Source: Amoebophrya sp. A120 (taxonomy: Eukaryota > Protista > Dinoflagellata). From it: a DNA stretch of 64,000 nt. Position 1 is the stretch's first letter; each line of letters begins with the position of its first letter. A model generated the notes under the pieces. It was given only the letters and a program-made list of their open reading frames with translations, did no database searches and was not told the DNA's origin. A program made the translations under genes and the position numbers. Of this stretch, positions 1,498-56,815 are shown piece by piece. Location of the stretch: contig CAJINV010000005.1 of the NCBI GenBank assembly GCA_905178155.1, positions 8,471,591-8,535,590 of the forward strand, read 5' to 3'.

Positions 1498-4423
1498 ATG
1501 CTGCGCCAGGACCACTACCTCCGTCTCTTCGTGTTTCTGACGATTTTTGTTCTCGTAGTCGCGGCCGTGATCAACACCGACTTGCTCCACGACCACCACT
1601 TTGCGCAGCCAGTCTTCGCAATCGAACAGAAATCCATGCAGCAAGCTTCCCTGGTGCAGTCCCAGAATACCAAACATCTCCGCACAGAAAGAACAGGACA
1701 AGGCACGAGGTCTGCAACATCAGCAGCGTCGAATAGTAAAGCGCGAAGTACCATTTCCTCCGACGCTAGTACAGCAACATCCGCGTCGATGTTGGAACAA
1801 GACGCTGCAGCTACAGGAACATCAACCACAGCACAACAAGATGAAGACGTCACCCAACTTGTCGGCCAAGACCGGCCGGAGGACGAGGATTCCGGGAAGG
1901 AAATTATTTCCGGGCAACGGACTTACGAGCGGGAGAACACACCGACTTACGAGCCGAGCAGCATCCTATGCATTGCAAATGTGTCTGGGTCGGGAAGAGT
2001 GGAACTTGTAATGCTGACTGCGGATTCTAAAAACATTTGTGTTGCATGAGCAGCAAGAGGAGTCAGTTCTTGTTATGCGCAGAGGGCATTTCTCATGCGT
2101 CAGTAGCATCGAGAAGCTCTCAAAAAATCAGTGATGCCAGCATCAGCATCACAGACCTCACGGGTCATGCAAAATGTGCATGACAAGCCCCGACTCTTCC
2201 AGACCCAGACATATTTGCATTGGATACATCCGGCCGCCGATTGATTACGACCGGTTCCACAGCTACGGGCAACAGGTGTACATCCCCGATGGGACTGCGA
2301 GTGAAGAGGAAGTCGCGAACCACCAACTGCGACACAAACGAATGCTGTTTCAGCTGCAGATGGCGGAGCAGCTCGGGATGAAGGAGGAGGATATGAACAG
2401 CACAGGTGATCGAAACAACACGGACAGGAAAAAGTTCAAACTACCGTCAGTTGGCAACGTCGACGCGAGACAGACGCAGCGGAAACCCTACAATCTGGCG
2501 AAAGCGAGTTTGCCGTGGTCGGGCTACATCAAATTCTCCGACGTGCAGACTGGGCAGCAACAGTATAAATGAGATTTAAAAACTTATCATGCTGTACACA
2601 CACGACACAAAAGTGGAAGCAGCTTGCCTTGCATGATTTCACGCATGACAAAGACCTTTTCAAGTTACTGATCAACCCAAAAACCAAATCAAATCCCACA
2701 GCGACCTTTGCCTCGGCTACGTGGAGGACGCGAATATTTATCTCGGTGCGAAGCAAGCCCAATCCCAACTCGGAGATTTTGACGAGGTAAACATCCTGAC
2801 CTGGGGGTCCTGCCCGACCGCGAAATGGAGTTTGATCCCCCAGATGTTCCCGACCTACGACGGAAGATATTTGTTCAACATCGAGTGGAACCACACTGGG
2901 CTCTTCCTAGCCTCGTCCCGCTGCGAGCCGCCGGTCGGGTCCAACTTGTTATCCCTCGCGGCCTATTTGACGAACGAAACCATCGGAGCGGGCAAGAATA
3001 TTGCGTCGCTGATGGGCGATAGTGATACTAGTGCGGAGCAGAATGCTGGTGCGTCGAATTCAACCACAGACGGAGGTTCTTCTGCGTCCTCTAGTGCAGG
3101 AGCCGCGTCTTTGTCCGTGGAAGAGCAGCAACAACTGGCGAAGAAACTACTCCACTCCTGCTTCCAGTCTTTCCCGAAGGGTACGTATCCGATCTTACTT
3201 TCGCGAACCTCGCCCACTTTGTTCCAGCTAAAGTGGGACGGTACCTCTTTCCACCCGCGGATGTTCGAACTGCAGACGGCGTATGAGGAAGTCCCGGATC
3301 CGGATAAAAGCAATGTGAATGTGCACCTCGCACTGGACGAAACCAACCGGATGGTGCGGCACCGGTCGCAAACCGGGGGGACAGAACAGTTGAAGGTGGC
3401 GTTGTTTCCGCCGATCTACTGCGAGTGGGCGAATGACACGCTGTGCACCTACGAGGAGGTCAACGACTGGCAGTACGAGAAAAAGTTTGCGAAGAAGGGT
3501 TTGTTGGTGCTACTGACGAATCAAGTGAAGGAGTATGGTATAAACTAAAGTTGTTGCGTTTTTCTTTTTCATAATTAACTTTTTTGAAAAAGTTTAATGC
3601 AGTGATAAATACGGGAGTTACGCATCGTCCAGCTTCTGCAGCTTTCATGCACAGATGCATGTTTTTCTTCCGAGAGATGTTGTAGCCTCGTTGTGATTAA
3701 CACTTTCATATGTAGTCAGTGCATGCGATCAAAGAAGTGACTCCCCTCTACCACCCTAGTTTGACATTCGCATAGCATTTTACTCGAGAGAAATTTCATT
3801 TGATGATTGAGAAAAAAAACTCCAAATCAGTATCCATCGTGTTGTTCCACCCTTACTCCTACCTCTTCACGTTTTTCTACGCCATTGTGCTCGTCGCGTT
3901 GTATTTCTGTTGCAAGGGCGCAAGATTCCTCGTGAACCGGCACTACGCCCCGGGGGCGGTGAATCCAAAATCCGGCGGCACGGTGGCGCAGTTGGCGCAC
4001 GAAAGGTACCAACTACAACTCTCGGACATGGCTTTCGGCGTCCGCGCACACCCCCTGGACACACCGAGTACCAGCCGGTTTACGCATAGGAACAACGAGA
4101 AAGCGATCGAGGACCAAGAAGCGTTAGACGCGGCGCTCCCCGCGCCAGACCGCAGTACGAGATCAATCGGCGGGAACGTCGCGAGGGTGGGGTCGGTCAC
4201 GGTGACGGGATCAACATCTTCCGCGAATGAACAGGATAATGCAAATGAGCAAAGCAGGAATAGCGGTACTAGTCGAGCAAGTCGGAGAAGTTCAAAAAGT
4301 AAGAGGAATTTTGCTGAACTAAATCTAGAAGAAACAGCGGCGTTGTTAGGCGAGGACGACGCCAGCCCAGAAAGAAATTCAGTGTCGAGGAAGGGAAAGG
4401 GGAAGGGCAAGAAAGGAACGTGA
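1498..4423 (+). CDS. Hypothetical type I membrane protein (N-terminal hydrophobic signal, C-terminal TM and basic tail), 4 exons
   Basis: In-frame joins: introner 1967-2226 (EPSS|IRPPIDY), GT-AG 2563-2701 (GQQ|HDLCLG), GT-AG 3538-3830 (VKEY|VSIVLFHP). TM YLFTFFYAIVLVALYFCC. Frame is open from ~1303, so the start is uncertain. Confidence 0.75.
1967..2226. mobile_element. Introner family A (TIR TATnnnnTGCAAATATGTCTGGGTC)
   Basis: DR catcc/catcc. Confidence 0.95.
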
Positions 4424-5248
4424 ACGAAGAGGAAAACTTGAAAACTTCTTTCGCGTGCCTGTAAGATGATGAAACAAATTTATTAAAATGATCGTGTTTC
4501 GAATTATGCAGGGGCAAGAAACCGTATGGTCAGTAAAGTTTCCAAGAAGAAGAATTATATATTTGGTACTTTTTTAGTACAACTCTTCCACGAACACTTC
4601 ACAGTTTGTCTCAAGCTCTATCACGAGCTACACTCATCTGACTTGTTCCAGAAGGAAAGGCAGCGATCTTCTTCCCTCTCCTTGGGTTTTTAGACACAAT
4701 CGTGGTAAGTATGCACCGTAAAAACCCTAAACCGGTTCGTACTCGTAACTCGAAAATTTCGATGAGTCGCATGATTTGTCGTCGAGAGATAAGGCTGCAT
4801 GCTAAGTTCCTTAGTCTCTCGGGTGTTCTGTCGAAAATCGTATCAGCATGACTTCGTACGAATAGAGACGCGATCGCATAAAAATCATGTTTCGTTTCTT
4901 TCAATTTGTCGCTGAGAGAGGGTCGTGCTCGTGGTCGCAACCATGAACCATCGTGTTTTGCCTCTTCGAACTTTATCCTCGCACTCGCTTCGTATCATCT
5001 TGCAAATCGTCAGATGTGATTCAGAAGACAGTTGCAACGTGTCGTGTCAGAAAGAAGTAGTGATCTTCTACTAGCAGGCGTCCTAGTTGTCATAGTAAAG
5101 ACTAGAGCTTGCGATTGTGGTGTAGTAAAAAGTACTACCAAGCAGCCGCAAGAAAGAACAACTCAGCAGTGATGCGTTGAGAACAAATCTGCTATAGAGA
5201 AGCGTTGGAAGCTAACTTACTAAAATAATCGGCTAGACAAACAAGAAA

Positions 5249-8200
5249 ATGATTGCCACATCAGCGCAGCAAGCAGAACCGCAGCCAGCGACATCGTCGT
5301 CGCCTGCTGTGCCAGAGGAGGTCGTGGGTGCTGCCGCAGCTCCGGAGATCATGAACAGCATGGATATCGGCGGGATGAAGAACAATTCTGCAGAGGGAGG
5401 GGAGGCGCAGGTAAGTAATTGTATTTATGTTTTCGATCACATAATATGCTGGAACTTGTCATGCGCTTGGGCTTGGCCCAAAACTGAAGAATTCTGTCAT
5501 GCTTGAATTGCAATTAGTACCTACAGACACAAAGTCGAAGATATTCACTTTACCGACAGCAAATCATCCCGCAGCATTTGGACAACGGGAACAACCAAAA
5601 CACCGTATCCTAAGCAAAAACGTCTCCACCCCATAGTCAAGTTGGGAATCTTGCAACACAAATCTCCAAGTTTTGGGAGCTGTGCATCATGACAAGTTTC
5701 CCTCTGCAGTGTAGTACTGGTTGACAAGGGAAGCCGCATGAGAAAGCCACTTTCTCATCCTGTTTACAGCATTACAAATTCCAAAACACGATTGGAAATA
5801 CCTCTCGCTCTCATTGGAGCTGCGCATTACAAATGTTCCTGTCAGTGCACATTGGCATGACAGCCCTGGGGTGGGGACGTTTTTACTCAGGATACACCGC
5901 TTTCTCGCCCATCGATGTGGACGAGCAGCACAAAAATTTGCAGCAGCAACTGGCCCAGCTGCAGCAGTTGCAGTTCAACAACAAGTTTTGTTTTGAAAAC
6001 AACTTCCCCTTTTTCAACCTGATGAACAGCCTGCAGAACAACGGTACCGCAGCCGGTGCGACTAGTACTACCTATACGGGCGCAAACGCAGCCATCGGTG
6101 GTCCGATTTCGAATTCCACTACCTCCAACAGCTCCTCGAACGAGAGCCCGACGGAAGGTTTGACGATAGACGTCTCCAAACTGGTGAACTTTCTGTCCAT
6201 GTCCGCCGGGGCCGCAACCTCGCGGAACACCACCTCCACCACCGTTTCGGGCGCGACGTCTGCGGGGGGCGTTTTGAACGCTGCCAACATCGGCGCAGCC
6301 GCGATGGGAGCCGCGGGCGCGAATCCCATCACGAACAACGGCATGACCACCCACATCACGCCGACGGATTGCTCGCCCACAGATTCGGACATCAATGCGT
6401 TCAACATGCAGTTTTTCCAGAATCAGGTGCTGAATTTCCAACAAAATAACGCCCAGCAGCACTCATCTTCCCCAAACAATACTTTCGGGACGAACAGCGG
6501 TGTGGGGATTGGGACCATGAACGTCCAGAGTTTGGTGGAGCACCAGGAAAACAGTAAGATGGTGCACCGTGGTATGGTGTTCTCAACTGTTACACTCTCA
6601 GCTGTTGCGTGGATTTGTTACGCAAGAATGGGAAAAGTGAAAGGGGGAGGATTGCGCCTGTAGCATTACAAATTCCGGACAGATTTCGGTGCTGTGTAGC
6701 CCTAGGCAAAGTTGTCATGATGCGAAGCAGCTTGATCGGGTGGATGATGATGGTGCTTTTGCATGACAAACTCATGTAACAGTTGAGAATGTAACGGTTG
6801 AGAACCCCATACGTGGCGACAACAGTTCTTACCAGTTTCATCACAACATGCAGCAGCAGCAGATGCAAGGGACGAATGGTTATCAACAGTTCAATTACAA
6901 TCAGAACAACGGCGGGAATACTAACCACATGAACCACAACCGTTCGGGTTGTCGGGATAATCAGCACCAGATGCACAACAACTATCGTGGTGGTTCCCGA
7001 TCGAACTACCACTCCCGGAACCCGAGCCGGTCCGGCGAGCAACAAGGCTGCTCGTCATCCGAGCAACCAATGTACAACCAGCACCGCGAAAAATCGGTGA
7101 CCTACTGGAAGAACAAGCAGAAGGAAAACGGGCAGGGTGGCAACATGCAGACAAGCAACATCAACCGCGGTGGTTGTGGCACTAACCAAAATTCTACTGG
7201 CGGTTCCTGCGCAGCCCCGGGGTTCATCAATAATCAACAGCAGAATCAGACTACGACCAACTATGACACGTTCAACGGAAACAATAGTGGTTCTGGATAC
7301 AACAACGACCAAAATTACAACAACAACCAGCAGAACCAGTACAACAACTCGGACATGCAGAATAACATAAACCACAATCGGTGGAACACCCGTCCGGGAG
7401 GGAATCAGGGTGACAACGGAAACAACAACAATTGGGGAACAATGATGAATAACAACAACTCTTGGAACAACATCACAAATCAGAATAATTCCTACGGTAA
7501 CCAAAACCACAACCCGAATCAGCAACAGCAATTCCATCAAAACGATTTCTCTGTGAAAAAGTACCAGGAATTACTGCAAAAGTCCTACCACTCGATCGTC
7601 CCGGCGTCGAAGAATTTCAACCCGAGTATATGCATTGCAAATATGTCTAGGTCTGGAAACTTGTGATGCATGTCAGTGAGAAGAAAGCGCACTGTAATGC
7701 ACCGCCAGGCATGACAGATTTATCCTTGGCTCCGTGTTGCGTATTCCGCACGACAAACAGCGTTTTGGCATGACAGATAAGAGGAGCTCTTGCTGGCCAC
7801 GCAATACAGAGCTCAGTGTCATGCCCGACTAGCATGACAAATCCCGTATCCTTCCAGACCCAGACATATTTGCATTTGATAGAGCACGGATTTACCCAAG
7901 GACGGGCGGTATTCGCTGCAGAAGAAACCGACTATCAAGTGCAAATATCTATGCCTGGGTTTGGAAGAATGCAACTTGTAATGCTGCACTTGGATCCCAA
8001 AAAAATCTGTATTGCATGAGCAGCAAAGGCGGGAGTGTAATTTTTGCTACGCGGAGAGGGCATTAGCATTTGTCATGCGGAAGAGGCATCAAGAAGCCCT
8101 CAAGAAATATGTGATGCTAGGGCATGCATCACAGACATCATGGCTCATACAAAACTTGCATGACAAGTCTCAGAATGATTTCCAGACCCAGGAGACATAT

Positions 8201-9872
8201 TTGCACTTGATAACGACCTACTCGAAACAGAGTTTCCACTCAAAAAACACGACTGCTTCCTACAACGGGTCCGGTATGGGCGGGGATCATGGGGGAGATC
8301 AACATCAACCTGGGCACCAGAACTACAACGGAAATAATTCGCATCAGCCCAAGCGGTTCGTGTGTGTGTTCTGGATCTCGGAATGTACGACGTCCGATAA
8401 CAGTTACAACCACGGTGCTGCTTCCTACAAACAACACTATGGTTTTGGAAACAACAAGGAACAAAATCTCGACTTTGTGGTGGTCAAGCGGATCCTCGGG
8501 AAACACGGAAATTATGAATTGCAAAAGTATCGTACTCGTAGTAATTGCAGTCATGCGTTACAAATCCTTTGCCTTAACGTAAATCCGCATTACAAATTTT
8601 ATTTCTCATGCTGAAATGAAAATTTGTGATGCATTTATACGAGTACGATGCTTTTGCACAGGATAGAAACAACATGCGATCGATCTTCGAGGAGACCGGG
8701 TGCAATATGAGAGTGCGCAAGCCCCCCTCCTCCTCATTTGTATGGCATGAGCAGCAATACAAACACCAGCACATGTGGAGCCTATGCGTGACAAATTCAT
8801 GGGTCTCATGTAGAAGTACTGTTTGGGCTTCCAGAAGAATTTGTCATGCCAACAGTGCCACAAAGCAGCGACTGGGTTTAGGATTTTGCATCACAAATGA
8901 GGGCGGGGAGGCGGAGTTGTGCATTCTCATATGCAAGGTCCGGTTGCGCGGCCGGGGGTCCGGATTTTTGGAGGGACCGGATCGGAAGGAGTCGACGGAA
9001 CCCTTGCAGTTGCATGTTTCCTGCCTGGAGTATAGTTATTGATGTGGGTTGTTTGTTATGCGGAAAAATTTCAACTTTTTCGCAATATGGTGGAATGCAT
9101 TTTTGTCATTCAGGCGTTTCTTTGAATCACTTCACAGTCACAGAGCGGATTTGTCATGCATTTTCACACATCAATTCCAATTCAATATACAGGAACTTCG
9201 AGAAGTATCAGCAAGCGGTGGAGATGGTGACGAATTTGTTGACCGACATCTACTATGCATTGCAAATATCGATCTGGGTCTGGAAAAATTCCAACTTGTG
9301 ATGCAAACTCAGGATCTTACAGAAATTTGTGTTGCGTAAACGCCAAGACCGAGAGCCGCCAATTTTTTGCTAGGCAAATAGGGAGTTTCTTTCTCATGCA
9401 GCGCAGGCATGAAGAAGTAGCCCGCGCAAAACCTGTAATGCTTTTACGCGCATTCCAGATCAGCTGCTTGATGCGCAAGATGCATGACAAACAAGCGTAC
9501 TCTTGCAGACCCAGACCTATTTGCAGTCGATATCTACGATGGTTACAAGCGGTTCTGCAAGCGGCACAGCCTCCCGATCCCTACTGGTGAGGACCTGCAA
9601 GTTATGATGTTGAGGCAAAATATCATCTGATCTACTTGCTTCAGGAAGTCGAAGTTTGTGATGCGTGAATCGAAGGTGTTGCATGAAAGTTGAAAGAACA
9701 AACTCTGTGCCGCGCAGCTTTGCATCACAAATTCTTATACTGCTCGACGATGATGATGTTTTTGTCGTTCATAGAACTCCGTATGGAAGAGGTGCGACGG
9801 GATGATTTGAAGCAAGCCAATCAGGCGGCGCAGGTGCAGATCCCGGTCGCGCAGCAAGGAGTTGTGCAGTAG
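5249..9872 (+). CDS. KH-domain RNA-binding protein (SF1/BBP- or KHDC4-type KH) with long N/Q-rich low-complexity region, 11 exons
   Basis: Spliced product has VVKRILGKHGNNMRSIFEETGCKVRLRGRGSGFLEGPDRKESTEPLQLHVSC (GxxG loop, LRGRGS motif). GT-AG introns 5411-5526, 9030-9192, 9587-9774; 7 introners, all joins in frame. Confidence 0.9.
5606..5894. mobile_element. Introner family E (TIR TATCCTnAGnAAAAACGTCnCCACCCCA)
   Basis: DR caccg/caccg. Confidence 0.95.
6573..6811. mobile_element. Introner family I (TIR TATGGnGTTCTCAACnGTTACA)
   Basis: DR cgtgg/cgtgg. Confidence 0.95.
7629..7881. mobile_element. Introner family A
   Basis: DR gagta/gagca. Confidence 0.93.
7933..8212. mobile_element. Introner family A
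   Basis: DR ccgac/acgac. Confidence 0.93.
8513..8665. mobile_element. Introner family B (TIR TATnnnnTGCAAAAGTATCGTACTCGTA)
   Basis: DR gaaat/gaaac; at the end of the KH GxxG loop. Confidence 0.95.
8706..8931. mobile_element. Introner family C (TIR TATGAGAGTGCACAACTCCCCC)
   Basis: DR tgcaa/tgcaa. Confidence 0.95.
9254..9532. mobile_element. Introner family A
   Basis: DR tctac/tctac. Confidence 0.93.
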
Positions 9873-11817: not shown

Positions 11818-12659
11818 ATGCCGCAGTCTCCGTGCCTGAATGAGATCCTGGCCTCCCCGCTGGTTACCGGCGAAGGCCTGGGACTGGACCTGCCGAAGCC
11901 GGAGGTGTTTCAGGAGAACAAGAAGATCCAACTGGTCGAGTCGGTCGACGCTGGAAAGAAACTGTTCACCGAGTTTAAGCAGTCCGCGAGCAAGATGTCG
12001 GTGTTGGATTTTTCCGAATCCGAGATCGCGACCACGCCCTTGGACGCTCTGACCGACTGTATAATGATTCTGATAGTACAACTGATTTAGTGATCTGTCA
12101 TGTTGTATTGCTCTTGCTGCATGAATAAACCGTCTTTTCTTGCAAGGTGCGCATGACAAATCCAAATGTTCCTATCCATTATGAAAAAATCGAAAATCTT
12201 CACAGTGAAGTCGAAGAACTTCCCCTTCGATAAGGAGGCGGAGAAGTTTACTGCGGCCGGTTTTATGCGGGTTTTGAAGGAGCAGCGCGAGGAGAAAAGT
12301 ATACTTCGTTTTCTTTTGCAGTTTGTCTTTGTGCATGATACCCCAAAGATTAAGTACATCGTGACAAACAAGAACAACAAAACAAACTAACAGCCTGGGT
12401 CAAGCCGATTGCCCTGTCGCCCGCTATCTCAAAAGCGTCCTGCATGACCGCCGGTTCGGGAATGGCTGCGATTAAGGCCCCCTCGGTGGCGGGATTCGCG
12501 GTCAAGAATCGGGACTTGGCCAAGGCGGAGGAATTGAAGAAGGATGCGGTCAAGCGGTGGATCCAGGCGCAATTTTCTGCGATGAAGTTGCTCCCCACGC
12601 GGCGCGAGGTGATCGACGCGGTGGTCGAGATGGAGGAAAAACTGGACGGTTTGTTGTAA
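11818..12659 (+). CDS. Hypothetical protein, MP(Q/N)(S/T)P family member, 3 exons
   Basis: GT-AG introns 12059-12205 and 12299-12393 join three ORFs in frame; N-terminus similar to the genes at 17946 and 19898. Confidence 0.75.
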
Positions 12660-17945: not shown

Positions 17946-18502
17946 ATGCCCAATTCCCCCTGCAAGGCCGAGAACTTCTCCCTCGGCATCGAAGTGCCGA
18001 AGTTGAAGAAGCCGAGTAAGGAACCGTTGGTGCCCACCGAGAAGGTCGCGGGGTTCTTCCTGCAATTCAAGGAGTCCCTGCCGAAAAAGCTCGAGATTCC
18101 GGAGGAGAAAGACCTCCAGAAGGGACTGCAGAGCGGTAGAATGGTTTTTGTTATACAACTTTGAGTATGAAAAAAAAAGATAATGTAGTTTGACGACTTC
18201 ATGCTTGTCATGATGAAAATAATGTTGAGTAGGAAGGAGAAAGCAAAACTGCATCCTCTCTTACAGTGCCGGTCCCGAACTTTACGAAGTTTAATGTGGA
18301 AGCGCACAAGAAGATGGTCGAAAAACAGGAAGAGGAACGCGCGCAGCACAACAAGAAGTTCGTCGAGGCGCAGCGCGCGGCGGCGTTGAAGCCGGTGCAG
18401 CAACCGGTGTGCGCGTCCGCGCGCACCCCCTGGACACCCCGAGTACCAGCCGGTTTACGCATAGGAACAACGAAAAGGCGATCGAGGACCAAGAAGCGCT
18501 AG
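17946..18502 (+). pseudogene. Chimeric or truncated paralog of the 19898 gene, fused out of frame to a copy of the 3' end of gene 1498
   Basis: GT-AG intron 18136-18266 at the same position as in 19898; homology to 19898 stops at ...KPVQQPV (~18409), then the sequence switches to a copy of 4038 onward. Confidence 0.65.
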
Positions 18503-35677: not shown

Positions 35678-35729
35678 ACAGAAGAGTACCGTTTAAAAGT
35701 GAAGTCCTACAATCGGCACGACGCGGTTG

Positions 35730-36462: not shown

Positions 36463-36559
36463 TATGCATTGCAAATATGTCCTCTGGGTCTGGAAGGTTG
36501 GAACTTGTAATGCTAGCTTTCCATACCTAGGAAACCTGTATTGCGTAAGCAACAAAAGT
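36463..36559. mobile_element. Truncated family A introner (left part only)
   Basis: Left TIR after cacca; the site is empty at 31561; right part lost at a deletion junction. Confidence 0.8.
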
Positions 36560-42000: not shown

Positions 42001-43519
42001 GAACAACAAACGCCAACAGCAACGGGAAGAACACTGGCGAGGGGTTCTTGGCCAACGCGAACGCAACAAATAAAACCATTACGGGAGCAGGTGTACTAGA
42101 TCAAGATGCTTTAACCTTTCTCGATTGCTGCTTCTACGGAACCATTGTCATTGCAGTCTTGCTGATATGCACTGCAAAAACATCGTACTTACTAGTATGA
42201 GTCGCATGACAGATTTCCTCAGCTTGAGAAATGAAATTTGTAATGGAGATTTAACTTGAGAAAGAAATTTGTAATGCAGGAATGCGATTAGTACGAGTGC
42301 GATACTTTTGCAGTGCATGACTGACACTCGCATTGGTCTTTGTGCTCTTCCTCTTCCGCAAGGAATTGCAACAGCTGCGAGGGTATGGATTGTAAAAATG
42401 TCTGGGTCTGGAAGAATGCAAGATTTGTGATGCAGCTTTTCCATGACCCATGAGGTCTGGAATGCAGGACCTAGCATGACAGATGCTGCGCGATCTCTCT
42501 CATCCTCATGCCTATCCTGCATGAGAAACTCCCTCCCGACTTGGTCAAAACTGGACGGCTTTTGGTAGTTATGCAACACAGATTTTTGCATGCTTGAGAT
42601 TTAGCATGACAAGTTGCAATCTTCCAGACCCAGACATTTTTACAATCCATAGAGGGACAGGCAAGCAGAAGCGACGAGGCCCGGCGGCGCAGCGGTGGCG
42701 CCACAGGAGCAGAGCCTACGCAAAAGATGCACAGCAGCACCCTCTTTACAACAAGAAGTACGAGCAGGTTGATGAAGTTGGAGGGAAGATGTTGAAAAGG
42801 ACCACGGCAGTCGTCCCGACGGCGCATCACCGGCAGGGAAGAAGAACTCCTTCTGCCCCCCGCGGGGGTGATCATGAAGATCATCATCCGCGTGCTGGAC
42901 GAGGAGGTACTGTCAGCACAGCGACGCTGAGAGATCGAAGGCCAGGGATGAACAAAGGGAGACATCAACCCGGTAGTTCCCCAACAACTGGTGCGCAGCA
43001 GGGGTCGCGACGTGGAGTAGACGTTGTAAACAAGAGCGCCAAGAAAATGAATACTGGTGCGACCACAACTACCTCGTCCCGGCCGGTAGACGCCTTGTCA
43101 CGAAAAATGGTTCTCAACGTACAACAAGAACCACCACCACGGCAGCTGTCGGGGGTTTCTGAGGAGGCAGGAAACACGACGCATGCCATGGAAACAACAG
43201 CTGCGACTACAGCGCATGAAGATCGAAACGTGTCCATCCCGATTATCGCGGTCGGAAATATGCATTGCAAAAGTATCGTAATATAGTAGAAATGGAAATC
43301 GCGTTACGAAAACGAACTGGCTCAGCATTACAAAGAAATGGAATCTGTCATGCTGATTTAAATTAGAAGGAAAATAAGAATTTGTCATGCATAGCTGCAA
43401 TTACTACGAGTGCGATACAACTTTTGCGGTTCATAGGAAGGAAAGAACAGCAACAACTGCAGGACGCGATGGATTTTGACAAAGCTATGCTGGCGGCGGA
43501 AATGAATGACAGGAGATGA
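39008..43519 (+). CDS. Type I membrane protein with two PAN/apple-like Cys domains (candidate adhesin), 11 exons
   Basis: Signal-like IIFALLVVVL; CQRNCTENPACMGFAY..NCVY and CERLCEEDRNCAAYQF...GTCRLY; TM FYGTIVIAVLLTLALVFVLFLF appears only after removing introner 42166; 10 introners, no canonical intron; alternative start 38948. Confidence 0.8.
39706..40019. mobile_element. Introner family F (TIR TATnnnnnGAAAAATCCCCCCTCC)
   Basis: DR gactg/gactg. Confidence 0.92.
40333..40541. mobile_element. Introner family D
   Basis: DR cccgc/cccgc. Confidence 0.95.
40589..40738. mobile_element. Introner family B
   Basis: DR tcgcc/tcgcc. Confidence 0.95.
40829..41058. mobile_element. Introner family C
   Basis: DR actcc/gcccc; left end TAC. 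Confidence 0.87.
41101..41382. mobile_element. Introner family E
   Basis: DR acaat/acaat; internally similar to 5606-5894. Confidence 0.95.
41449..41659. mobile_element. Introner group G
   Basis: DR ctttt/ctttt; TIR core GAAAAAAGTGnTACAGTTACACA. Confidence 0.92.
41733..41997. mobile_element. Introner family A
   Basis: DR cagga/cagga. Confidence 0.95.
42166..42319. mobile_element. Introner family B
   Basis: DR gctga/actga; right end ATG; splits the TM helix. Confidence 0.9.
42384..42651. mobile_element. Introner family A, reverse orientation
   Basis: DR gaggg/gaggg; interior is the reverse complement of the 37495 type. Confidence 0.95.
43259..43435. mobile_element. Introner family B
   Basis: DR ggaaa/ggaag. 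Confidence 0.9.
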
Positions 43520-44534: not shown

Positions 44535-47500
44535 ATGGGTAGTTCTTCGCCGCCAGAGGGAACAACAAGTAGAAACACGGAGAAAAAAGTAGACACGCGA
44601 AGAACTACAAGTAGAGCACGACAGCACGACACCACGAGACGGCATATAGAGCCACGTAGCAGCAGCAGTTCTTCACCTTCGATCGAGAGTAGTGTTTTGA
44701 GCACTTCTTCTAGCAGCCTGAGTTCTTCTAGCAGGAGTAGGAAAAATCTTCGCGGCGCTGCAGGAGGACAGCAGCATCGAGCATCCCCTACTTCGCGGAT
44801 TGAGAAAACTGAAGGAACATCAGAAGTCGTACCCAAAATATCAAATCGAGCTGGTGGAACAACTGGGCCATCATCAACTCGTGCAGGAAATACTAAAAAC
44901 ATCCTGTCGCACCGCAGCCGCAGCCGCACTCGGAGTAGTCGGACCGTGGAGACAACTGCTAGAGCCGCTGCAGTTCCTCGGGTCGGCGGGGAGGACAAGA
45001 AGAGAAATACGTCGCCTGGTGCTTCGAAGGACGACGACGAAGACGAACGAGAAGAGGACGGTGACGCAATCATGTCGAGCTCCAGCAGCTCCGGAGCGGC
45101 GCCGACGGCGGGAAAAAAAACCACAAATGATGTTCCCAACACGGCCGGGCGTCGCACGCTGCAGGAATTGAAACAAGCGTCGCCGTATCAATTGCAAAAG
45201 TAGCGTACTTGTATAGATGCATTACAAATTTCCAGAGCATGAGAAATGAAATTTGTAATGCGGATGTAGCTTCAGAACAAGATTTGTGACGCATGCTTGC
45301 AATTACTACGAGTGCGATGCTTTTGCACAGGATACACTGCCGTTTTTTCACCCGGAGGCGGTAACCAGCTGGCGGAAAATTTCCAAGTCTTCCTCGTCGA
45401 AGAGCGGAGAGAATTCGATCGACTCCATCTACTCGATATCAACTGGTGAAATATGTATGGGTCTGGAAGGTTGCAAGACTTGTCATGCAGGTTTTCCATG
45501 AGGACGCATTAGGTCTGTCATACGTGCAGCTCTGGCATGACAGATTCTGCGCGAGGACCTGTATCACGCCTTCTCTGCATGACAAACTGCCTCTCAAGAA
45601 CTTGGTCAAATAAAGTAGGGAGCTTTTGGTATAATCACGCAACACAGATTTTTGCACTATCCAGAATCAGCATGACAAGTTCCAGCGCTCCAGACACCCA
45701 GGGAGATTTGCAAGGAATACTCGATCGGCGGGTCTCTGCTCCCAGACAGCGACGACAGCGACAAGTACTGCAAGAGCGCACTGCTATCCTGAGCAAAAGT
45801 ATCGTACTCGTAGTAATCGCAGACATGCATTACAAATCTTGCTCTCAAGGTAAATCCGCATTACAAATTTCATTTCTCATGCTGAGGAAATTTGTAATGC
45901 ATTCATACGAATACGATACTTTTGCAATGCATAACTGCGACGGTCCGACAAAACGGAGGTGGTGTTGAAGGGCAGGCACAAACTGCGGGGCTTCAAGGAT
46001 GAGGAAGAGCTCGAGGATTGGAAAGTGTCTATGGCTTTGATGCACTACGTAACAAACAACAACGGAAGCAGTGGTAGCAGTAGCAGCACGTCTACTTCAG
46101 CTGGTGGAGCCAAAACCTCTGGGGATAAGAGGATAGCGCAAAACAACCCGCTGCCAAACATCGCACAAATGTATCCTCGAATTTTTGCTTTGTGTGATGT
46201 AAGACTGAGGAGTTAAAGTGAATTTTCATGTGCAATAAATGCAAAAATAAAACTACAAAGAATGTTCAAACAAAAATCAGCTCCGAGCTTTTGGAAGTAT
46301 GGAGAGAAAAAAGTTTGTCACAGTCACTCACTTGCAGGTTTTGCATTACAAATTTTCTCAGCATCACAAACTTTCCTTGTATTGCAGAAACACTAGGGAG
46401 ATCCCTGATGAAGTTTGGCTGTGATGCATTTTTACGCATGACAGGCAATTTTGTATTGCAAGAATGCGCATGAGTGATCGTGACGAACTTTTTTTCTTTG
46501 ATAGGAAGACGAAAAGTGGTACTATGCGGTGATGGAAAAAGTCCACGGGCGCGACATGTTTGACTTCTTCATAGAAGATATCAGATGCAAATATGTTTGG
46601 GCGGTCTGAAACAAGAATGCAAGTTTGTGATGCTTGGTCGACAATACAGAAAAGTCTGTCATGTTTGTTGCGCTACAGAAGTGCCGCTGGTTTGTCATGC
46701 AAAAATGCCATTTGTCATGCGGTTACGCTAGATGTAGCCGCTCAGAAACTTGTCGTGCGCGGTTCTGCAATACAGTTTTATGATTCGGATATTAGCATGA
46801 CAACTTTCCAGACTCAGACATATTTGCAACGCATAGAAGAGAAGCTGGCCAAAACGGACGACCTGAACTTAATCCACAAGATCGCACTGAACTTCATCCG
46901 GCAAGTCTGCAATGCGCTGCACGCACTACACTCCAAGGGCATCGTGCACCGGGACCTGATATCAAGATGAAAAATCCCCCCTCCTCATTTATTACTAAAA
47001 CGGAGATTTGTGTAGCATGATTTGCTACCACATATCATGTTGTCATGCTGGAAGGCAAAAGGTGCGGACTGTAGTGCTGGCTGGCGTGGGAAAGCCTTGC
47101 GCCTTCAGCATGACAGGAGGCAACTGGAACTGGGAAACAGCATGAAAAATTGCCTGCAATTCAGGCCAATAGTGCGGCTCTGGGCCTTCTAGCAAAATAC
47201 AAGTCGACGTGTGTACGCAAATCCAGCATCACAAATGTCCTTTTCAATATGGGGAGGGGGGATTTTTCCCCTGAATATCTGAAGTTCGAGAACATCGTGG
47301 TGGTAGAGAACGGCGGAAGTTGTCTATGGGAAGAAAAAACTGTTTCGCCGTGAAGGACTTGTGATGCATAGATCGGTACACAGAACTATTTGTCTTGCTA
47401 CACCTGCAATGCCAGGACTCTTCAAAGGTGTTTTCCCTTTGGAAGCGCGCGTGGCAAATTTTCTGTGTCATGTGTAAGTATAGAAACTTGTGATGCAGAT

Positions 47501-49663
47501 CTTGCAAATAAAAATCATCACAGTGAAGCATTTTTTCCTGCGATATTGTCACAACGGCTCATCGTCTCCAAAAAGGGCCTCGCCGGTCTTTGACCCAGCA
47601 AGAATGGAGGTATGATTCATGGTCATGCGCAGGTCTGACAGCATCGCTGACTGTGTTTTTTTTTGTCATGCGCAAATAGCACCATTGGCATTGGATCATC
47701 GAATCTGTGATGCAGTAGACCCGGCTTCTTTTGACAGTCAAATTTTACCTATGAGAAAGCTCTCCACCTCTCAGGTAAAGCTAATCGACTTCGACACGGC
47801 GGAGATTTTTGACGCGATATGACCTGCGAATATGTCTGGGTCCCATGGAAGAGTTGTGCACTGTTTGTCATGCACGGCTAGGATGCCTCCCAAGCCTGTC
47901 ATGCACGTTACCCGAAAGTAGCCACATTTCTCTGTCATGTACGAACGCAGTGGGTGAAGATGCTGATAGAAGACAACACTGACTATTGTAATCAAAAAAT
48001 TTCGCATGCTTGGCTGTCAACGTAGGCATAGGCGTTCGCATGATTCGCCGAAATACACCAGCCTCCACAAGTTTCCACACAATCCAGGGATATTTGCAGT
48101 GGATACGCGAACCGCATATACTACCATGTTCTCGGGTATGGAAGTGTCAGGATCGAAATCGGCAAAATCAAAAAATTTGTGATGCATAAAATGTAGGGCA
48201 CTGGAGGCCTGCATTGGGGAGCAGGCAAATGAGACCGATTGCAAGCCTGTTTAGGGGTATGCAATGTGCTGCCAGAGTAGCACGACAGGAGCAGTCTTCT
48301 TTGCCCAAACAACATGGCAGACTGGATTTGAGTGCTCCCGAAATTTGTCATGCGCCACTTACAAATTGAGGCTCCAACTGGTATCAATTTTTTGCATCAC
48401 AAATTTTTCGATTTTGTCAATTTCGATTCTGACACTTCCATATCAGGACGGATCAGTACATCGCACCTGAAGTGTACGCCGGAATGGTGACGCCCGCTTG
48501 CGTAGGCTTTGCGAAAATCATATCGTACGAGTAAGTAGTATTACTGCATTACAAATTTGGATTATTTCTTGCCCAGCATGAGCAATGCAAATGCAATTTG
48601 TAATGCGGTGGATTCAGCTCAAAAAAGAGAATGCAATGCACAAATGCAATTGCTTTTCCTACGAGTGCGATATTACTTTTGCAGAGGACATTGTGACATG
48701 TGGGCCGTGGGAGTGATGCTGTACACGCTTTTCACCGGAACTTTGCCCTATGCATTGCAAATATGTAGTCTGGGTCTGGAAACTTGTGTTGCTGATTCTC
48801 GCATTGCAGAGCGGTCGCTTGTACAGTATCACAGCATCAGAAGTTATTTTGCCAGGCTTCTTGCAGCAGGTCTCAATTCCTAAAACGCATGACAAACTAT
48901 ACCATATCCAGCACGACAAAAAATTAGAATTACCCAACCGCATTTTATGCATCACAAATCCTTGTTGTCCTTCACATCCCGCATGACAGATCGATATTTG
49001 CAATCCATATGCCCTTTCACAACGCGATATTTGACGACGAGCCGGGGGAGAATTGGGTCGGAAATCCGGCCATGGAAAAGATCCGCAGGAGGCTGAAACT
49101 GGTCAAGATTGACTGGTCGCACCCTGTATCAAATGCAAAAATGTCTGGGTCTGGAAGGTTGGAACTTGTGATGCTAACTCTGGACTGTAAAAACATCTGT
49201 ATTGCATGACCAGCAAGAGGAGTCCAGTTTGTGCTACGCCGGGAAGGAATTTGTCATGCGGAGTAGGCATCAGGAAGGAAGATCTGTGATGCTAGGTAGT
49301 GCATTACAGGATCCTGGGTCATGCAAAATATGCATGACAAACCCGGCAACATTCCGGACCCAGACACTTTTGCATTTGATACCCTGTGTGGAGCGAAAAA
49401 AGACCGTCGAGTCAATCCATCTATCCTGTGCAAAAGTAATATTTTGCATATAGTCGTAGTCACTGCGGAAACCAGATTTGTCATGCAACTTATTGCACCG
49501 AACAAACTACTTCTACGACTGCGATAATGTTTTTGCACTGCATACCATCGTGCAGCCAGAGTCTTTGGTCAAGGATTTTTGCCGCCGGTGCTTCGCGTTT
49601 GAACCGAGCCAGCGCTTGACTGTAGTGGAGGCTCTGGCGCACCCGTGGCTAAGCGGAAAATAG
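44535..49663 (+). CDS. Ser/Thr protein kinase, CAMK/CDPK-like but atypical (DFD, no GxGxxG), 16 exons
   Basis: After splicing: VVLK, PNIAQISELLEDEKWYYAVME, HSKGIVHRDLKFENIV, VKLIDFD, VLGTDQYIAPE, CDMWAVGV, RLTVVEALAHPWL. 13 introners; GT-AG introns 46171-46280 and 47610-47774. Confidence 0.93.
45186..45334. mobile_element. Introner family B, opposite orientation to 45785
   Basis: DR cgccg/cactg. Confidence 0.9.
45437..45719. mobile_element. Introner family A, reverse orientation
   Basis: DR ctcga/ctcga. Confidence 0.92.
45785..45933. mobile_element. Introner family B
   Basis: DR actgc/actgc. Confidence 0.95.
46298..46503. mobile_element. Introner group G
   Basis: DR ggaag/ggaag; TIR core GAAAAAAGTTnGTCAC. 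Confidence 0.92.
46579..46835. mobile_element. Introner family A
   Basis: DR gaaga/gaaga. Confidence 0.93.
46960..47277. mobile_element. Introner family F
   Basis: DR cctga/tctga; splits HRDL|K. Confidence 0.96.
47325..47545. mobile_element. Introner family D, opposite orientation to 40333
   Basis: DR ttgtc/ttgtc. Confidence 0.93.
47818..48105. mobile_element. Introner family A (degenerate)
   Basis: DR cgcga/cgcga. Confidence 0.9.
48137..48442. mobile_element. Introner family H (~50-bp TIR TATGGAAGTGTCAGnATCGAAAT)
   Basis: DR tcggg/tcagg; splits VLG|TDQY. Confidence 0.95.
48503..48690. mobile_element. Introner family B, decayed ends (TAG...ACA)
   Basis: DR ttgcg/ttgtg; splits AC|DMW. Confidence 0.88.
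48749..49009. mobile_element. Introner family A
   Basis: DR tgccc/tgccc. Confidence 0.93.
49127..49381. mobile_element. Introner family A
   Basis: DR ccctg/ccctg. Confidence 0.95.
49422..49544. mobile_element. Introner family B (short)
   Basis: DR ccatc/ccatc. Confidence 0.9.
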
Positions 49664-53294: not shown

Positions 53295-56200
53295 ATGAAC
53301 AAGATGTTGTCTTCGTGTGCTGTTTTATTCTTTTCCCTAGCGGGCGGCCATCAAGTCGCAGTCCTGGCCGCCGAGTCGCCGACTTCCCCAGGAGGTGGTC
53401 CTCGTGGTCCCGCGCTGAGTATTCTTAATTTTCACGGCCAAGAGATGCAGAGGATTCCGTTTGCAGAATTATGCATTGCAAATATGTCTGGGTCTGGAAA
53501 CTTGTGATGTAAGTCTGTGAATCGTGGGCCCACTACAATATGCAGCCAAGCATGACAAGCTTTTGCATGTGCCATGTGCTTCGTTTTCCGCATGGCAAAC
53601 TGCGTTTTTGCATGACCACAGGGTGTCCGTCTCAACGATACGATACGATGACAGACAGGAGGCCCCGTTCCTGCTTACGCATCGCAGATCCAAGAGTCAT
53701 GCCAGACAAGCATGACAAGCCCTGCATTCTTCCAGACCCAGGCATTGTTGCAATGCATAAGATTGGTGGTACAACAACCGGACAGTTGCGGACCTTTTCA
53801 ACAAGGTGGAGACCGGCGAATGGGAGCCAGCGTCGGCGCACGAGGAGGATGCGGTGTTTGATTGTGGAAGTACCGCGCAGCTCCTCGCGGTCGATATTGT
53901 CCCCGTTCGCTTTGATAATACCTTATCACAAGAAAAAAATGTAGTCACAGGCAGTTACACACGACCCTACGGATGCAAGACCAGCAAGACGTCATGCAGG
54001 AAATGCGTGGCAGTCTCATTTCATGCGTGTTTCTTTCCCTTATAGTCTGCGCACCACAACAAGTTTTCTTTGCCATGCAGGACAACATCTTTGTGATGCT
54101 GAAACTACAACATCAAATGTGTAATAACTGTGGAGCCTTTTTTTTCCGGTGATATCCATGCGTCTTAGGAAAGTACCAACTGACAGATCCGCAGGTACTT
54201 GGGGGGTTTCCACAAGTACGGAAGGCTGCGCTTTTCTCTTCTTCGTCCACGCCCCCAGAGAGCAAAGATATACGGCTCCGATATGTCCGTGCTACGCGCC
54301 AGAAGCTAGCTTTTGCCACCCTGCTCAGAAAAATGTACCGCTTACTCACGGTATCCAGGAACGCCCCGCTACTTGAGTCTTCCGGTCCCACAGCGGAGAA
54401 GGCGGACCTGAAAAAGTTGCTGGGCGACTTCTGGTATGCTCTGCAAAAGTTGTGTCTGACACTCGTACGAATCGCACGCGTGCATGAAAACATCGGAGCT
54501 ACTTTCTTTTTACCTAATTCTGCATCACAATAAATTTTCATCTTCTTCTTGGAGAAATCATTTGCCAAATGCGATTTCACTACCAGTACGAAATAGTACT
54601 TTTGCAATGCATATCTGGCACGAGCATACGCACGCACCAGAAGTTGTAGAGGTGCAAGATGGGCAGCCTGGTCGTTTAGAGCACCAGCTTCGAGCCTTTT
54701 TGATGGGCCCCGGTCGGAGCACAAGATCGCCGCATGATCCGGCGCCCGCAGCGTATTTACTACCCGACGACGCGGAACTTCGTTGGTTTCTGAATCAGAT
54801 TATGAAATCCAAATGTGTCTGGGTCCTCTGGAACATGATGGCAACTTGTCATGCCAAATTTGAATCATGCAAAAATCTGTGTTGTATGATTGCCAACAGC
54901 TGCCCAGACTTTTGACCAAGTTGAGGGGAGGTTTGTTTCTCATGCAGGATTTTTGGCATTTGAGGTTGATAAAGTAGATCTCCCTCTTCACAGAATCCAA
55001 TCTGTCGTGGTCCTGAGTCCTGCATTTCAGACCTCATGAGTCATGTAAAACCTGCATGACCACGACGCCAATCTTTCCAGATCGGCAGATCGATATTTGC
55101 AATGCATACAGGTGGACCGTGCTCTCCTGTCGGCTGCAGCGGAGCCTCAAGAACAGGCGGAAGCGGAGTCGAAGATTGTCCTGCGTTATGGTTCTCCCGG
55201 ACAAGGAGTGAAGGTGTACTCAGCAGGGGAAATTAATCCTGGACACGTTAGAGTTAGCATTGAGGTGGGCGGCCCCCGCCCCGGCCCGGCCGCCGCAGAA
55301 AATCCTAGGCCCCGCCAGGGACGCGGCAGAGGACGTGGCAGGGGCCGCGGCCGGCGGGACAACGAGGTGGACCCGCAGCCGAAGGCGGAGCCGGTCATTT
55401 CCAACTATCCCAGAGAAAAAAGCAGGCAGGGCATATAATTTGTATATATGCAAAAACAATAAATACGCAAAAATAAAAATCTGTCACGGGCGGCCTTGTA
55501 GCATGCTGTTTAGGATCATTCGCAATACAGATTTTTTTGTGTATTTATTCTTGCATAATTATCTGCCTGCTTTTTGTTTTTTCTGTGGGATAATAGTACC
55601 AACCAAACTGTGCATATACCTCCAGAAAGCATGCCGGCGAAGATTTTGGCGAAAATTTCTCGGGAACAAGAACAACGGCGCGACCCACGAATGCGTGGAC
55701 GACACCTCAACTTATCAATAGGAAAAATCCCTCCTGCTCCCCATATCGAAATAAAGGCATGCTTCCGAGATGAATTTGTGTTGCTGATTTGAGGCCACAA
55801 ATCACATTTGTTTTGCAAGAAGACACGGGCACCAGAAGCTTCCGCCCCATTAACATTATGGAAGCGAGCTGCCATGCTGTTGGGCCTAAAAGTGGCCAGC
55901 CGCTTGCCGTGCTGCACAACTAGACCCAGACGGTCCTTCTACCTAGCTTGGGGAAGATCTGGCCGCAAGAGTGCCTCTCTGCAATACAAACCTGATTTCT
56001 TGTGTACACAAATTGAGCGTGAGATGAAAATCCGTTGTGATATGGGGAGGGGGGATTTTTCCATACGATACCACTCTCCTTTTCCTCCCGCGTGGCTCCG
56101 CACCTGGGATTATGGATTGTAAAAATGTCTGGGTCTGGAAGAATGCATGTTTGTCATGCTTGTCTGGTATGACTCTTAAATCTGTCATGCACGTTACCCA

Positions 56201-56815
56201 GGAGCTCTGTTTTTCTGTGATGCAGGAACGCAGTTTGTCATGCAGAATAGGCAACACCTAGAAGCTCAGAAACTTTTCATGCTGAGCGAGCATTTGTGGC
56301 CTCACATGAGACGCCACCCAGCATCACAAGTTTCCAGACCCAGACATTTTTACATTTGATAGGGGTTTGAGTGTGGTGGAGGACGGTTTTGAGATGGACC
56401 ATCGGCATGGAGTTGGGGCGCTTCTTCTATGCATTGGAAATATGTCTGGGTCTGGAAGAATGCAACCTGTCATGCTGATACTGGATAGTGCAAAAATCTG
56501 TGTAGCATGATTACCAAAAGCTGCCCACTTTTGTTGACCAAGCAGCGAGGGAGCTTCTCATGCAGACGAGGCATGATAGAGGTCGGGGAGGAGCAGAATC
56601 TGTCATGCTGGTGGGTCATGTATATGACAGAGGACCTCACGTGGTCGCGACATGGATGAAAACTGCCATGACAAGTCTTGTAACCTTCCAGACCCAGATA
56701 TTTTTGCAATCCATATCTAAGCATCACATGCGAGTTGGAGCTGCGTGAGGAGAACCGCTATGGCCTGACGCTCTCCTTCACCTTTCGTTTAGTTTTTCAT
56801 CACGGCATCCCCTGA
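53295..56815 (+). CDS. Hypothetical secreted protein with internal RG repeat, 9 exons
   Basis: Signal peptide MNKMLSSCAVLFFSLAGG; 8 introners, all joins in frame to ...FRLVFHHGIP*. Confidence 0.8.
53470..53759. mobile_element. Introner family A
   Basis: DR agaat/agatt. Confidence 0.92.
53924..54154. mobile_element. Introner group G
   Basis: DR tacct/tccat. Confidence 0.85.
54435..54613. mobile_element. Introner family B
   Basis: DR tctgg/tctgg. Confidence 0.93.
54801..55108. mobile_element. Introner family A
   Basis: DR cagat/caggt. Confidence 0.9.
55406..55592. mobile_element. Introner group G-like (TIR TATCCCAnAGAAAAAA..GCAGGCAG)
   Basis: DR lost (ccaac/atagt), but removing 5 nt still restores frame. 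Confidence 0.82.
55713..56070. mobile_element. Introner family F
   Basis: DR caact/ccact. Confidence 0.9.
56111..56361. mobile_element. Introner family A
   Basis: DR gggat/ggggt. Confidence 0.92.
56428..56715. mobile_element. Introner family A
   Basis: DR tcttc/tctaa. Confidence 0.9.

Follow-up and report, generated by a model that had tools for sequence, protein, structure and literature searches.

Introner elements of Amoebophrya sp. A120 with unrelated interiors share one short motif (full form approximately HGCAWBACARRYY, 14.8 bits), often set as same-strand sites 31-33 bp apart. Our best explanation, which we put at about an even chance, is that it is a putative double-stranded DNA site for a mobilising protein shared by all families, like subterminal repeats. 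In the window, i.e. the whole analysed stretch of 64,000 nucleotides, GCATNACA has 185 exact matches (96 plus, 89 minus), compared with 9.0 ± 2.9 and a maximum of 18 in 100 shuffled windows; its N position is G in 94, C in 44, T in 44 and A in 3 of them. Exact matches are concentrated in introns with a terminal inverted repeat (TIR; 159 in 14,101 bp, expected 5.2; 60 of 64 elements positive) and in GT-AG introns (13 in 1,909 bp, expected 0.56; 8 of 13 positive). Exons have 1 in 18,571 bp (expected 1.6), intergenic DNA 5 in 24,602 bp (expected 2.7) and satellites 1 in 3,082 bp, which bears out an earlier note on this DNA that the motif is rare there; 6 lie in a rearranged gene, most of them within element fragments. 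Of the 18 motif positions quoted in that note, 16 are exact within 1 bp (2006 is 2007, 2145 is 2146, 12150 is 12151) and two are one-mismatch variants (GCGTTACA at 8555/6 and GGTCATGC at 47621). Both orientations occur, as had been claimed, but in TIR elements this is partly a consequence of insertion in either direction with respect to transcription.

Introners of A120 have been described as non-canonical, MITE-like introns of about 150-320 nt in many families, whose inverted repeats begin with TAT-N7-AAA and whose junctions carry short direct repeats (Farhat et al. 2021, PMC7789003; Gozashti et al. 2025, PMC12130899); among 21 of the 58 A120 rows of the supplement, 17 are classed as TIR DNA, superfamily unknown. 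The elements studied here match them: they have the same repeats, TAT...ATA ends with a 5-bp duplication at the junction, multiple repeated families and removal without GT-AG. The set of 445 elements combines the window (64 elements, curated by their TIR and TSD with an ORF check; Table 1) with a related assembly, from which 93 loci (486 kb without overlaps) were sampled with one family 0 TIR pattern as seed; the sample over-represents family 0 and introner-rich regions. It comprises 15 multi-copy families and 33 singletons, all TAT...ATA TIR units with a 5-bp TSD, in either orientation. All families have TAT-N7-AAA ends in the position table of the 445 elements, a result that is partly by construction because the finder itself requires TAT-like ends and an A run. 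The TSD is perfect in 319 of 445 elements, empty paralogous sites have a single TSD copy, and GT..AG is available at any shift in only 21 of 445. Of the 15 joints listed, 13 excise the TIR element plus one TSD copy (runs X3 and X5, putative RNA); the raw RNA runs X9 and X10 gave only 35 and 5 partial reads and were uninformative. For families 0, 1 and 4, putative transcript contigs contain both orientations spliced.

Table 1. Introns and motif sites of the window, left to right (intron calls within 1300-13100 are based on frame restoration).
Feature	Positions	Strand	Basis, members and sites
TIR intron, family 0, ~260 bp	1967..2226	+	TIR, 5-bp TSD, removal opens ORF; 4 exact sites
Predicted GT-AG intron	2563..2701	+	frame restoration; 1 exact site (2643 +)
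Predicted GT-AG intron, 293 nt	3538..3830	+	exact site absent
Predicted GT-AG intron, acceptor uncertain	5411..5526	+	tandem sites 5457 -, 5495 -, 38 bp apart
Seven TIR introns	5606..9532	+	TIR, TSD, removal opens ORF; 5606-5894 (family 3), 6573-6811 (6), 7629-7881 (0), 7933-8212 (0), 8513-8665 (1), 8706-8931 (4), 9254-9532 (0)
Predicted GT-AG intron	9030..9192	+	sites 9054 -, 9152 -
Intron, GT-AG or decayed TIR element at 9603-9773	9587..9774	+	sites 9657 -, 9722 +
Predicted GT-AG intron	12059..12205	+	site 12151 + and weaker - sites
Predicted GT-AG intron	12299..12393	+	exact site absent
Predicted GT-AG intron	18136..18266	+	boundaries from paralog and gene model; exact site absent
Predicted GT-AG intron	20100..20250	+	no site even with one mismatch
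Two family 1 TIR introns at one and the same site of paralogous genes	20502..23511	+	20502-20638, 23385-23511
1,690-codon gene with 18 TIR introns	26260..34007	+	26260-26412, 26984-27205, 27832-28042, 28284-28452, 28788-29034, 29214-29362, 29440-29656, 29713-29933, 30605-30754, 31016-31272, 31327-31478, 31607-31761, 31888-32048, 32466-32615, 32662-32810, 32924-33084, 33139-33392, 33846-34007; joints for 26984, 33139 and 33846 in putative transcript contigs
GT-AG intron, 110 nt, without TIR	27516..27625	+	joint in putative transcript contigs X3, X5; tandem - sites 27552 (variant), 27584 (exact)
Predicted GT-AG intron, 101 nt	30195..30295	+	tandem + sites 30238, 30271, 33 bp apart
Paralog, rearranged and probably broken, holding TIR introns and element fragments	35459..37755	+	35459-35677, 35730-35991, 36221-36375, 36860-37124, 37495-37755; empty sites matching insertions 32924 and 33139
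Ten TIR introns, 790-codon ORF	39706..43435	+	all ten plus one TSD copy removed, X5 contigs; 39706-40019, 40333-40541, 40589-40738, 40829-41058, 41101-41382, 41449-41659, 41733-41997, 42166-42319, 42384-42651, 43259-43435
13 TIR introns	45186..49544	+	45186-45334, 45437-45719, 45785-45933, 46298-46503, 46579-46835, 46960-47277, 47325-47545, 47818-48105, 48137-48442, 48503-48690, 48749-49009, 49127-49381, 49422-49544
Basic unit, example	45827..45869	+	same-strand sites 45827, 45858, 31 bp apart
GT-AG intron	46171..46280	+	joint 46170-46504 with short exon between, X3; exact site absent
Predicted GT-AG intron	47610..47774	+	sites 47664 -, 47706 -, 42 bp apart
Eight TIR introns, 463-codon ORF	53470..56715	+	53470-53759, 53924-54154, 54435-54613, 54801-55108, 55406-55592, 55713-56070, 56111-56361, 56428-56715
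Intergenic family 1 element fragment	59416..59523		blastn to 36265-36375; explains match at 59420

The claim that every TIR family carries the motif held up for the major families: seven families of the 445-element set, with unrelated interiors, have 4-8 sites each. Once the sites are masked, family interiors are unrelated, and TIR similarity is seen between families 3 and 5 only. The sites are spread over the whole interior rather than the ends alone, and lie inside the TIR itself at 97 of 820 ends, in families 3-6 at 0 of 154. In the loci, elements reach a site density of about 21/kb, against 2.2/kb for predicted canonical introns and 0.1-0.3/kb for exons and intergenic DNA; genic elements have 21.9 and 'non-genic' ones 20.0 sites/kb, the latter class being probably mostly gene-model failure. 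Viral contigs match a 17-mer 11 times, with no site arrays there, and a 20-mer not at all.

Same-strand pairs at 31-33 bp reach a family-weighted 22.3 against a null of 2.7 ± 1.7, and 22 of the 48 families and singletons have them; some opposite-strand pairs are found at about 16, 35 and 46-47 bp. The second spacing noted before, 42-43 bp, could not be upheld for TIR elements (0.6 at 41-43 bp against a null of 2.5), nor are 20-22, 52-53 and 62-65 bp enriched in them. With one fixed spacing there is therefore no general 10.5-bp phase as had been suggested; Fourier analysis gives significance at almost all periods tested because the single peak drives it. The proposal of a strand-symmetric protein site gains support from this fixed geometry, together with conservation above the flanks, and we regard such a site as probable on the sequence evidence.

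Motif and flanks were compared among family copies. Private substitutions affect 408 of 12,268 motif core positions (3.3%) compared with 2,714 of 30,115 in the interior (9.0%), and the difference points the same way in all 7 families; the free N position has 8.7%, and TIR positions 11-25 (5.3%) are less conserved than the motif. Sequence context predicts 8.3% change at the core, and the observed change is 2.5 times less. It is most improbable that the families merely inherited the site, without current function, from one motif-rich ancestor or owe it to a mutational artefact. Their common TAT-N7-AAA ends would fit such an ancestor, but the masked interiors are unrelated, one spacing recurs in nearly half of the families or singletons, and the conservation contrast, with the N position behaving neutrally, has already largely refuted this explanation.

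TSD mismatches (126 of 1,940) give a post-insertion divergence of about 3.2-3.8%, near the motif's 3.3%; two core positions (1.6% and 2.1%) are lower than this TSD clock. Three same-site duplicate pairs differ at 9 of 91 motif and 43 of 319 interior positions (p=0.48), and at 7 of 125 TIR positions (p=0.02 versus interior); they discriminate weakly because all three involve a probably broken gene. Copies with a mismatched TSD show equal extra changes in motif and interior, +0.8% each, with wide intervals; the test is powerless. The near-identical pairs 20502/23385 and L010/L008 are uninformative on substitution, the pair 35730/36860 shares the right flank alone, and a further same-site pair, W46960/L067, was false and discarded. 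Since in duplicated copies the motif changes about as much as the interior while TIRs are protected, and since the TSD divergence is close to that of the motif, selection on the motif looks tied to mobility.

We therefore favour the mobilising-protein site. A dimer or oligomer may contact a pair of sites separated by three turns of the helix and so help to build the excision or insertion complex; the binder could be the transposase itself, an accessory protein of the TnpA type or a protein of the host that has been recruited for mobility. A copy that has lost sites would cease to spread, which would keep the sites intact, and it would be the TIR hairpin and the ends, rather than the motif, that set the splice boundaries. 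Short GT-AG introns hold weaker arrays, which could be relics of older insertions or reflect a secondary use that the host makes of this protein. The alternative raised earlier, in which one transposase serves every family, accounts for the elements no less well, given the duplicate pairs, but no transposase was found: Farhat et al. report none for A120 (PMC7789003), no transposase domain was present in 147 of 158 long ORFs of the 486 kb (at least 230 aa, unsplit; the 11 longest excluded), and three long elements of the same 486 kb have no convincing ORF. The stronger conservation of the motif than of TIR positions 11-25 and the TIR that seldom holds a site also speak against the favoured explanation, as do the two core positions under the TSD clock and the spread of sites over the whole interior.

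That the motif is read on DNA rather than RNA is indicated by family 3, in which 26 of 30 introns confine their sites to a single strand (plus in 14, minus in 12), by the insertion of families in both orientations and by the splicing of both. An RNA-level signal, with opposite copies forming stacked stems that bring the intron ends together or an RNA-binding protein reading the motif, is improbable. Predicted folds do pair core with core at 29-68% in six of seven families, but inverted copies are bound to give such pairing. In family 3 it is 9%, and the sites of an intron mostly lie on a single strand, which can be either one. The two members of family 0's outer pair agree at N in 23 of 114 copies, with 49 expected from permutation, and although 2 of 15 opposite-strand slot pairs beat permutation at p<0.05 (0.048 and 0.004), neither is the outer pair. 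The stacked stems proposed earlier find no support. In canonical introns, too, same-strand pairs outnumber opposite ones 13:1, without strand bias of the sites (+16/-15).

The set of canonical introns is mostly predicted; a relaxed gene-finder filter recovered 11 of the 13 curated window introns (one with another acceptor) with 3 false calls, a benchmark that is optimistic because the curated introns were also in training. The exact motif occurs in 14 of 63 predicted GT-AG introns of the related assembly, and a strong site (PWM score of 11 bits or more) in 23 of 72 predicted TIR-free GT-AG introns, a set overlapping the 63. That most canonical introns carry the motif is hence true of the window but not of the wider predicted set, and the enrichment of canonical introns over background, though real, is confined mainly to short ones: 16 of 29 introns of 150 nt or less have a site, compared with 7 of 43 long ones (p=0.0008), and density drops with length (rho -0.49). 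The motif is not a general intron code, because few long and about half of the short predicted ordinary introns carry it, and the claim that it defines introns fails for about two thirds of the predicted canonical set. A general splicing signal of the branch point or enhancer type was likewise rejected: a strong site is absent from most predicted TIR-free GT-AG introns, the sites are strand-neutral, and their distance to the splice sites varies (18-165 nt for the 3' end, 27-167 nt for the 5' end).

A narrower role in host marking is possible, since tandem sites with the same spacing occur in short GT-AG introns that have no TIR. Despite a tenfold higher density in elements, short predicted GT-AG introns have 24 sites where 0.8 are expected, and in them same-strand pairs again prevail (13:1) and spacings of 31-35 bp occur 5 times against 0.9 (p=0.0015). 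Mobility alone fails here, since these introns seem unable to transpose: those with sites have neither a TIR nor masked homology to the 445 elements, and compared among themselves yield one 20-bp match only. It is possible, with a probability well short of even, that a host DNA or chromatin factor binds tandem sites in short introns and aids co-transcriptional splicing, and that introners gained the site independently; equally tentative is the benefit to them, namely that the site gets them spliced and tolerated in exons. The shared tandem grammar without TIRs or homology argues for this, as do the transcript-supported intron 27516-27625 with its 32-bp pair, the AG|G signature of in-register element origin, which is not in excess (7 of 23 introns with a site, 16 of 49 without), the two core positions under the TSD clock and the failure to detect U1 in A25 or A120 (PMC7789003). 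Against it stand the 49 of 72 predicted canonical introns without a strong site in a set that is mostly predicted, not RNA-verified, the variable distance to splice sites, whose strength is the same with and without motif sites (p=0.42), the motif's lack of significant protection after duplication and its +0.8% gain, equal to that of the interior and with wide intervals, in TSD-mismatched copies, and the 4 of 64 window elements without an exact site. In a more specific form, which we consider rather doubtful, a host protein would read tandem GCATBACARR sites three turns apart on double-stranded DNA and mark short introns, and unrelated introners would have hijacked this mark. No less doubtful is the corollary that the mark would permit precise splicing without GT-AG ends and invasion of coding exons in a lineage that lacks U1 snRNA. 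Alternatively, the DNA-binding domain of a domesticated transposase could be the marker. Decayed elements make up at least 2 of the 21 predicted canonical introns with a site, which speaks for the mobility explanation.

The motif would bear on both introner movement and U1-less splicing in A120 (PMC7789003). A site of about 15 bits with 31-33 bp geometry, present in all major families, is a ready bait for the mobilising protein or a DNA-level splicing helper, and its presence in short TIR-free introns offers a way to trace introners becoming ordinary introns. As far as searched, the motif was not found in the literature: the text of PMC7789003 and PMC12130899, figures aside, mentions no family-shared internal motif, no 31-33 bp spacing and no occurrence in short GT-AG introns. 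Its closest known parallels are subterminal repeats. TNPA binds the subterminal repeats of En/Spm (CACTA), short reiterated internal motifs apart from the TIR and uneven at the two ends, which are a cis-determinant of mobility for non-autonomous copies (PMC2613891). Unlike En/Spm as described there (CACTA ends, 3-bp TSD), the elements here have TAT ends and a 5-bp TSD, and a single motif serves seven or more families whose interiors are unrelated, fills the element and occurs in TIR-free introns. Membership in the CACTA/En-Spm superfamily was ruled out by these termini and TSD (CACTA/G and 2-3 bp in that superfamily). On the Emigrant MITE, Lemi1 binds cooperatively to internal motifs present in several copies and, as for the internal repeat of Sleeping Beauty, arrangement and orientation matter (PMC1636448). 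In contrast to Emigrant as presented there, the TIR here seldom carries the site. We know of no cognate transposase for the motif. The letters GCATG are shared with the Rbfox site (U)GCAUG, an intronic enhancer, and with TGCATGCA, an apicomplexan ApiAP2 site, which we regard as leads only. Unlike in these, the fifth base of the motif is G, C or T and free to evolve, ACARR is required and both strands serve alike; nor is the motif the TGCATGCA palindrome.

The co-oriented genes on the + strand of this eukaryotic window are interrupted by inserts of 120-360 bp that start with TAT, finish with ATA and have 5-bp direct repeats on both sides. These ends agree with the introner elements of Amoebophrya sp. 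A120 as described in the text of PMC7789003, whose inverted repeats open with TAT, seven variable bases and AAA; it is this likeness that assigns the organism. Once 64 elements (plus one repeat copy each) and 13 GT-AG introns were removed, 10 of 11 modelled genes had uninterrupted frames of up to 1,690 codons. In contigs of two putative RNA runs, exactly these units are excised; the 15 joints listed are 13 elements with terminal inverted repeats (TIRs), one GT-AG intron (27516-27625) and one repeat artefact. Each of the 64 complete elements is placed in a coding region, and the 24.6 kb of intergenic DNA holds one fragment only (59416-59523).

The motif GCATNACA has 185 matches in the window, where 9.0 ± 2.9 were expected. 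TIR introns, of which 60 of 64 carry it, have 11.3/kb; for GT-AG introns, where 8 of 13 carry it, the density is 6.8/kb. In exons and intergenic DNA it is no commoner than chance. The coordinates quoted for it in the earlier note were correct to within 1 bp, two of them being one-mismatch variants. A set of 93 loci of a related assembly, pulled out by one TIR pattern, carries the same element families and a copy of one of the window's two satellites (see table). Window and loci together yielded 445 oriented TIR introns, which fall into 15 families plus 33 singletons, and a weight matrix built on 2,112 sites has 14.8 bits (approximately HGCAWBACARRYY). The consensuses of the seven large families have 4-8 sites each, spread over the whole interior, and their interiors are unrelated after site masking.

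Same-strand pairs of sites peak sharply at 31-33 bp (22.3 versus 2.7 ± 1.7, each family weighted once), a spacing found in 22 of 48 families; in the same weighting, no excess is seen at 20-22, 41-43, 52-53 or 62-65 bp. Opposite-strand pairs are in excess at 45-48, 34-36 and 15-17 bp, in windows picked post hoc. The geometry is a fixed three-turn dimer arrangement rather than open-ended helical phasing: of the spacings noticed earlier, ~31-33 bp was borne out and 42-43 bp was not.

Element families occur in both insertion orientations (e.g. 51:43, 19:12), and spliced forms of three families were observed in both. Of the 30 family 3 introns, 26 carry their sites on a single strand, which is plus in 14 of them and minus in 12. 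For the outermost opposite-strand pair in family 0, the free position N agreed in 23 of 114 cases, less often than under permutation (49). The simplest reading is that the site would act as double-stranded DNA; RNA structure, proposed earlier as stacked stems, is improbable in view of families 3 and 0.

A copy was scored as different only in columns that are uniform among its three nearest relatives. On this measure, the seven core positions differed in 3.3% (408/12,268), the interior in 9.0% (2,714/30,115), N in 8.7% and TIR positions 11-25 in 5.3%; the core was below the interior in 7 of 7 families, although these counts are not independent because the copies are akin to one another. At this level of comparison the motif does not decay at the neutral rate, and neutrality is scarcely credible: given its trinucleotide context, the core would be expected to differ in 8.3%. 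Across all 445 elements (window and L001-L092), the conserved TIR parts are TAT, AAA and a family-specific stem at 11-25; positions 4-10 are unlike at the two ends and change as quickly as the interior (9.6%).

Canonical introns mostly lack the motif. The GT-AG introns of the loci are all predictions, made by a self-trained gene finder whose background model had the exact motif masked out. Of 63 such introns, 14 carry the exact motif and 21 a site of at least 11 bits (26 matches, 2.1 expected), these 21 including two decayed elements and two borderline cases. The decayed elements, modelled as GT-AG introns, are possible intermediates of conversion into canonical introns. In a second, overlapping set, from which matches to family profiles and TIRs had been filtered out, only 23 of 72 have a site, at odds with the claim that most do. 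The site occurs in 16 of 29 predicted introns of up to 150 nt (24 matches, 0.8 expected) versus 7 of 43 longer ones (7 matches, 1.25 expected; p=0.0008, length split chosen post hoc). Most introns of the window are short, the likely reason for the earlier impression. In the short site-bearing introns, neither a terminal inverted repeat nor, after masking, homology to the elements was seen. Neighbouring sites in these introns are on the same strand in 13:1, and 5 of 13 adjacent same-strand pairs are 31-35 bp apart (0.9 expected). Phase 1 is uncommon among site-bearing canonical introns (2/23 versus 17/49). At L026 (~3930-4912, minus strand), three successive predicted GT-AG introns, excluded by the filters and from the counts, have same-strand site arrays spaced 33-51 bp.

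When does selection act? In three pairs of duplicates sharing an insertion site, differences amount to 9/91 in the motif, 43/319 in the interior and 7/125 in the TIRs, and the clock given by the target-site duplications (TSDs; 126/1,940 mismatches) indicates ~3.2-3.8% divergence after insertion, close to the 3.3% of the motif. Both observations argue for selection on mobility only. Selection by the host is favoured by two core positions at only 1.6% and 2.1%, by the short TIR-free introns, which appear immobile, and by the duplicates lying in a probably broken gene. A host mark on short introns, taken over by introners, is in our view possible but doubtful. Copies with mismatched TSDs show the same excess of changes in motif and interior (+0.8% each, with wide intervals). 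We put at about even the chance that the motif is the binding site of a shared mobilising protein, that TIR ends set the intron boundaries and that the copies in canonical introns are relics or in secondary use. No transposase was found among 147 long ORFs and three long elements, the latter having no convincing ORF. Of the earlier interpretation, site geometry and conservation above the interior favour a protein site; a general intron code was not supported.

The elements themselves are known, and so, as a type, are repeated internal motifs to which transposition proteins bind, with precedents in passages of PMC1636448 and PMC2613891. The motif, its spacing and its presence in short canonical introns were not found in the text, figures (including the logos of Farhat Figs 3 and S19-S25) aside, of PMC7789003, PMC12130899, PMC12005148 and PMC11282704; for the supplement of PMC12130899 the comparison covers 21 of 58 A120 rows.

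Features located in the window and in loci (L) of the related assembly
Feature	Location	Strand	Remarks
Long TIR element	L067 1892-4752		2.9 kb, perfect TSD; six-site array at one end only
Long TIR element	L059 2079-3384		1.3 kb, perfect TSD
Long TIR element	L009 632-1465		0.8 kb, perfect TSD
Decayed family 4 element	L024 5156-5436	+	modelled as GT-AG intron
Decayed family 1 element	L035 1695-1941	+	modelled as GT-AG intron
Satellite	window 13170-14130		10-bp, then ~20-bp tandem repeat
Satellite	window 15330-17450		GC-rich, unit roughly 100 bp; 94% identical to L078

In four elements with mismatched TSD copies (33846-34007, 40829-41058, 42166-42319, 43259-43435), the splice junction falls after base 3 or 4 of the TSD, assuming one register common to all four. 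A junction after base 4 would start the intron with N-TAT, the register of the common canonical donor G-TAT, in which case donor positions +2 to +4 may come from the TIR. Over the 445 elements, mismatches at the middle TSD base are about half as frequent as at the others (18 versus 32-40, p=0.002), and the donor shows no drift to G, nor the acceptor to AG. The 435 oriented TIR introns are unevenly spread over the codon phases at the TSD start (200:119:116).

The paralog at window 35371-37800 is a patchwork matching 31149-31565 and 32811-33530, with empty sites where the 32924 and 33139 elements stand; its pieces are linked via element sequences, suggesting recombination between introners. Two paralog pairs of the loci (L010 ~4900-5300 with L008; L002 with L078 ~4941-5300) are 88-90% identical overall and 100% identical over TIR elements and nearby exon, which is gene conversion or assembly collapse. 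Paralogous gene blocks stand in tandem at 17947-25320. Two of their genes (21836-22461 and 24699-25320) are intronless, and at ~18409-18805 they hold a copy of the exon found at 3831-4423.
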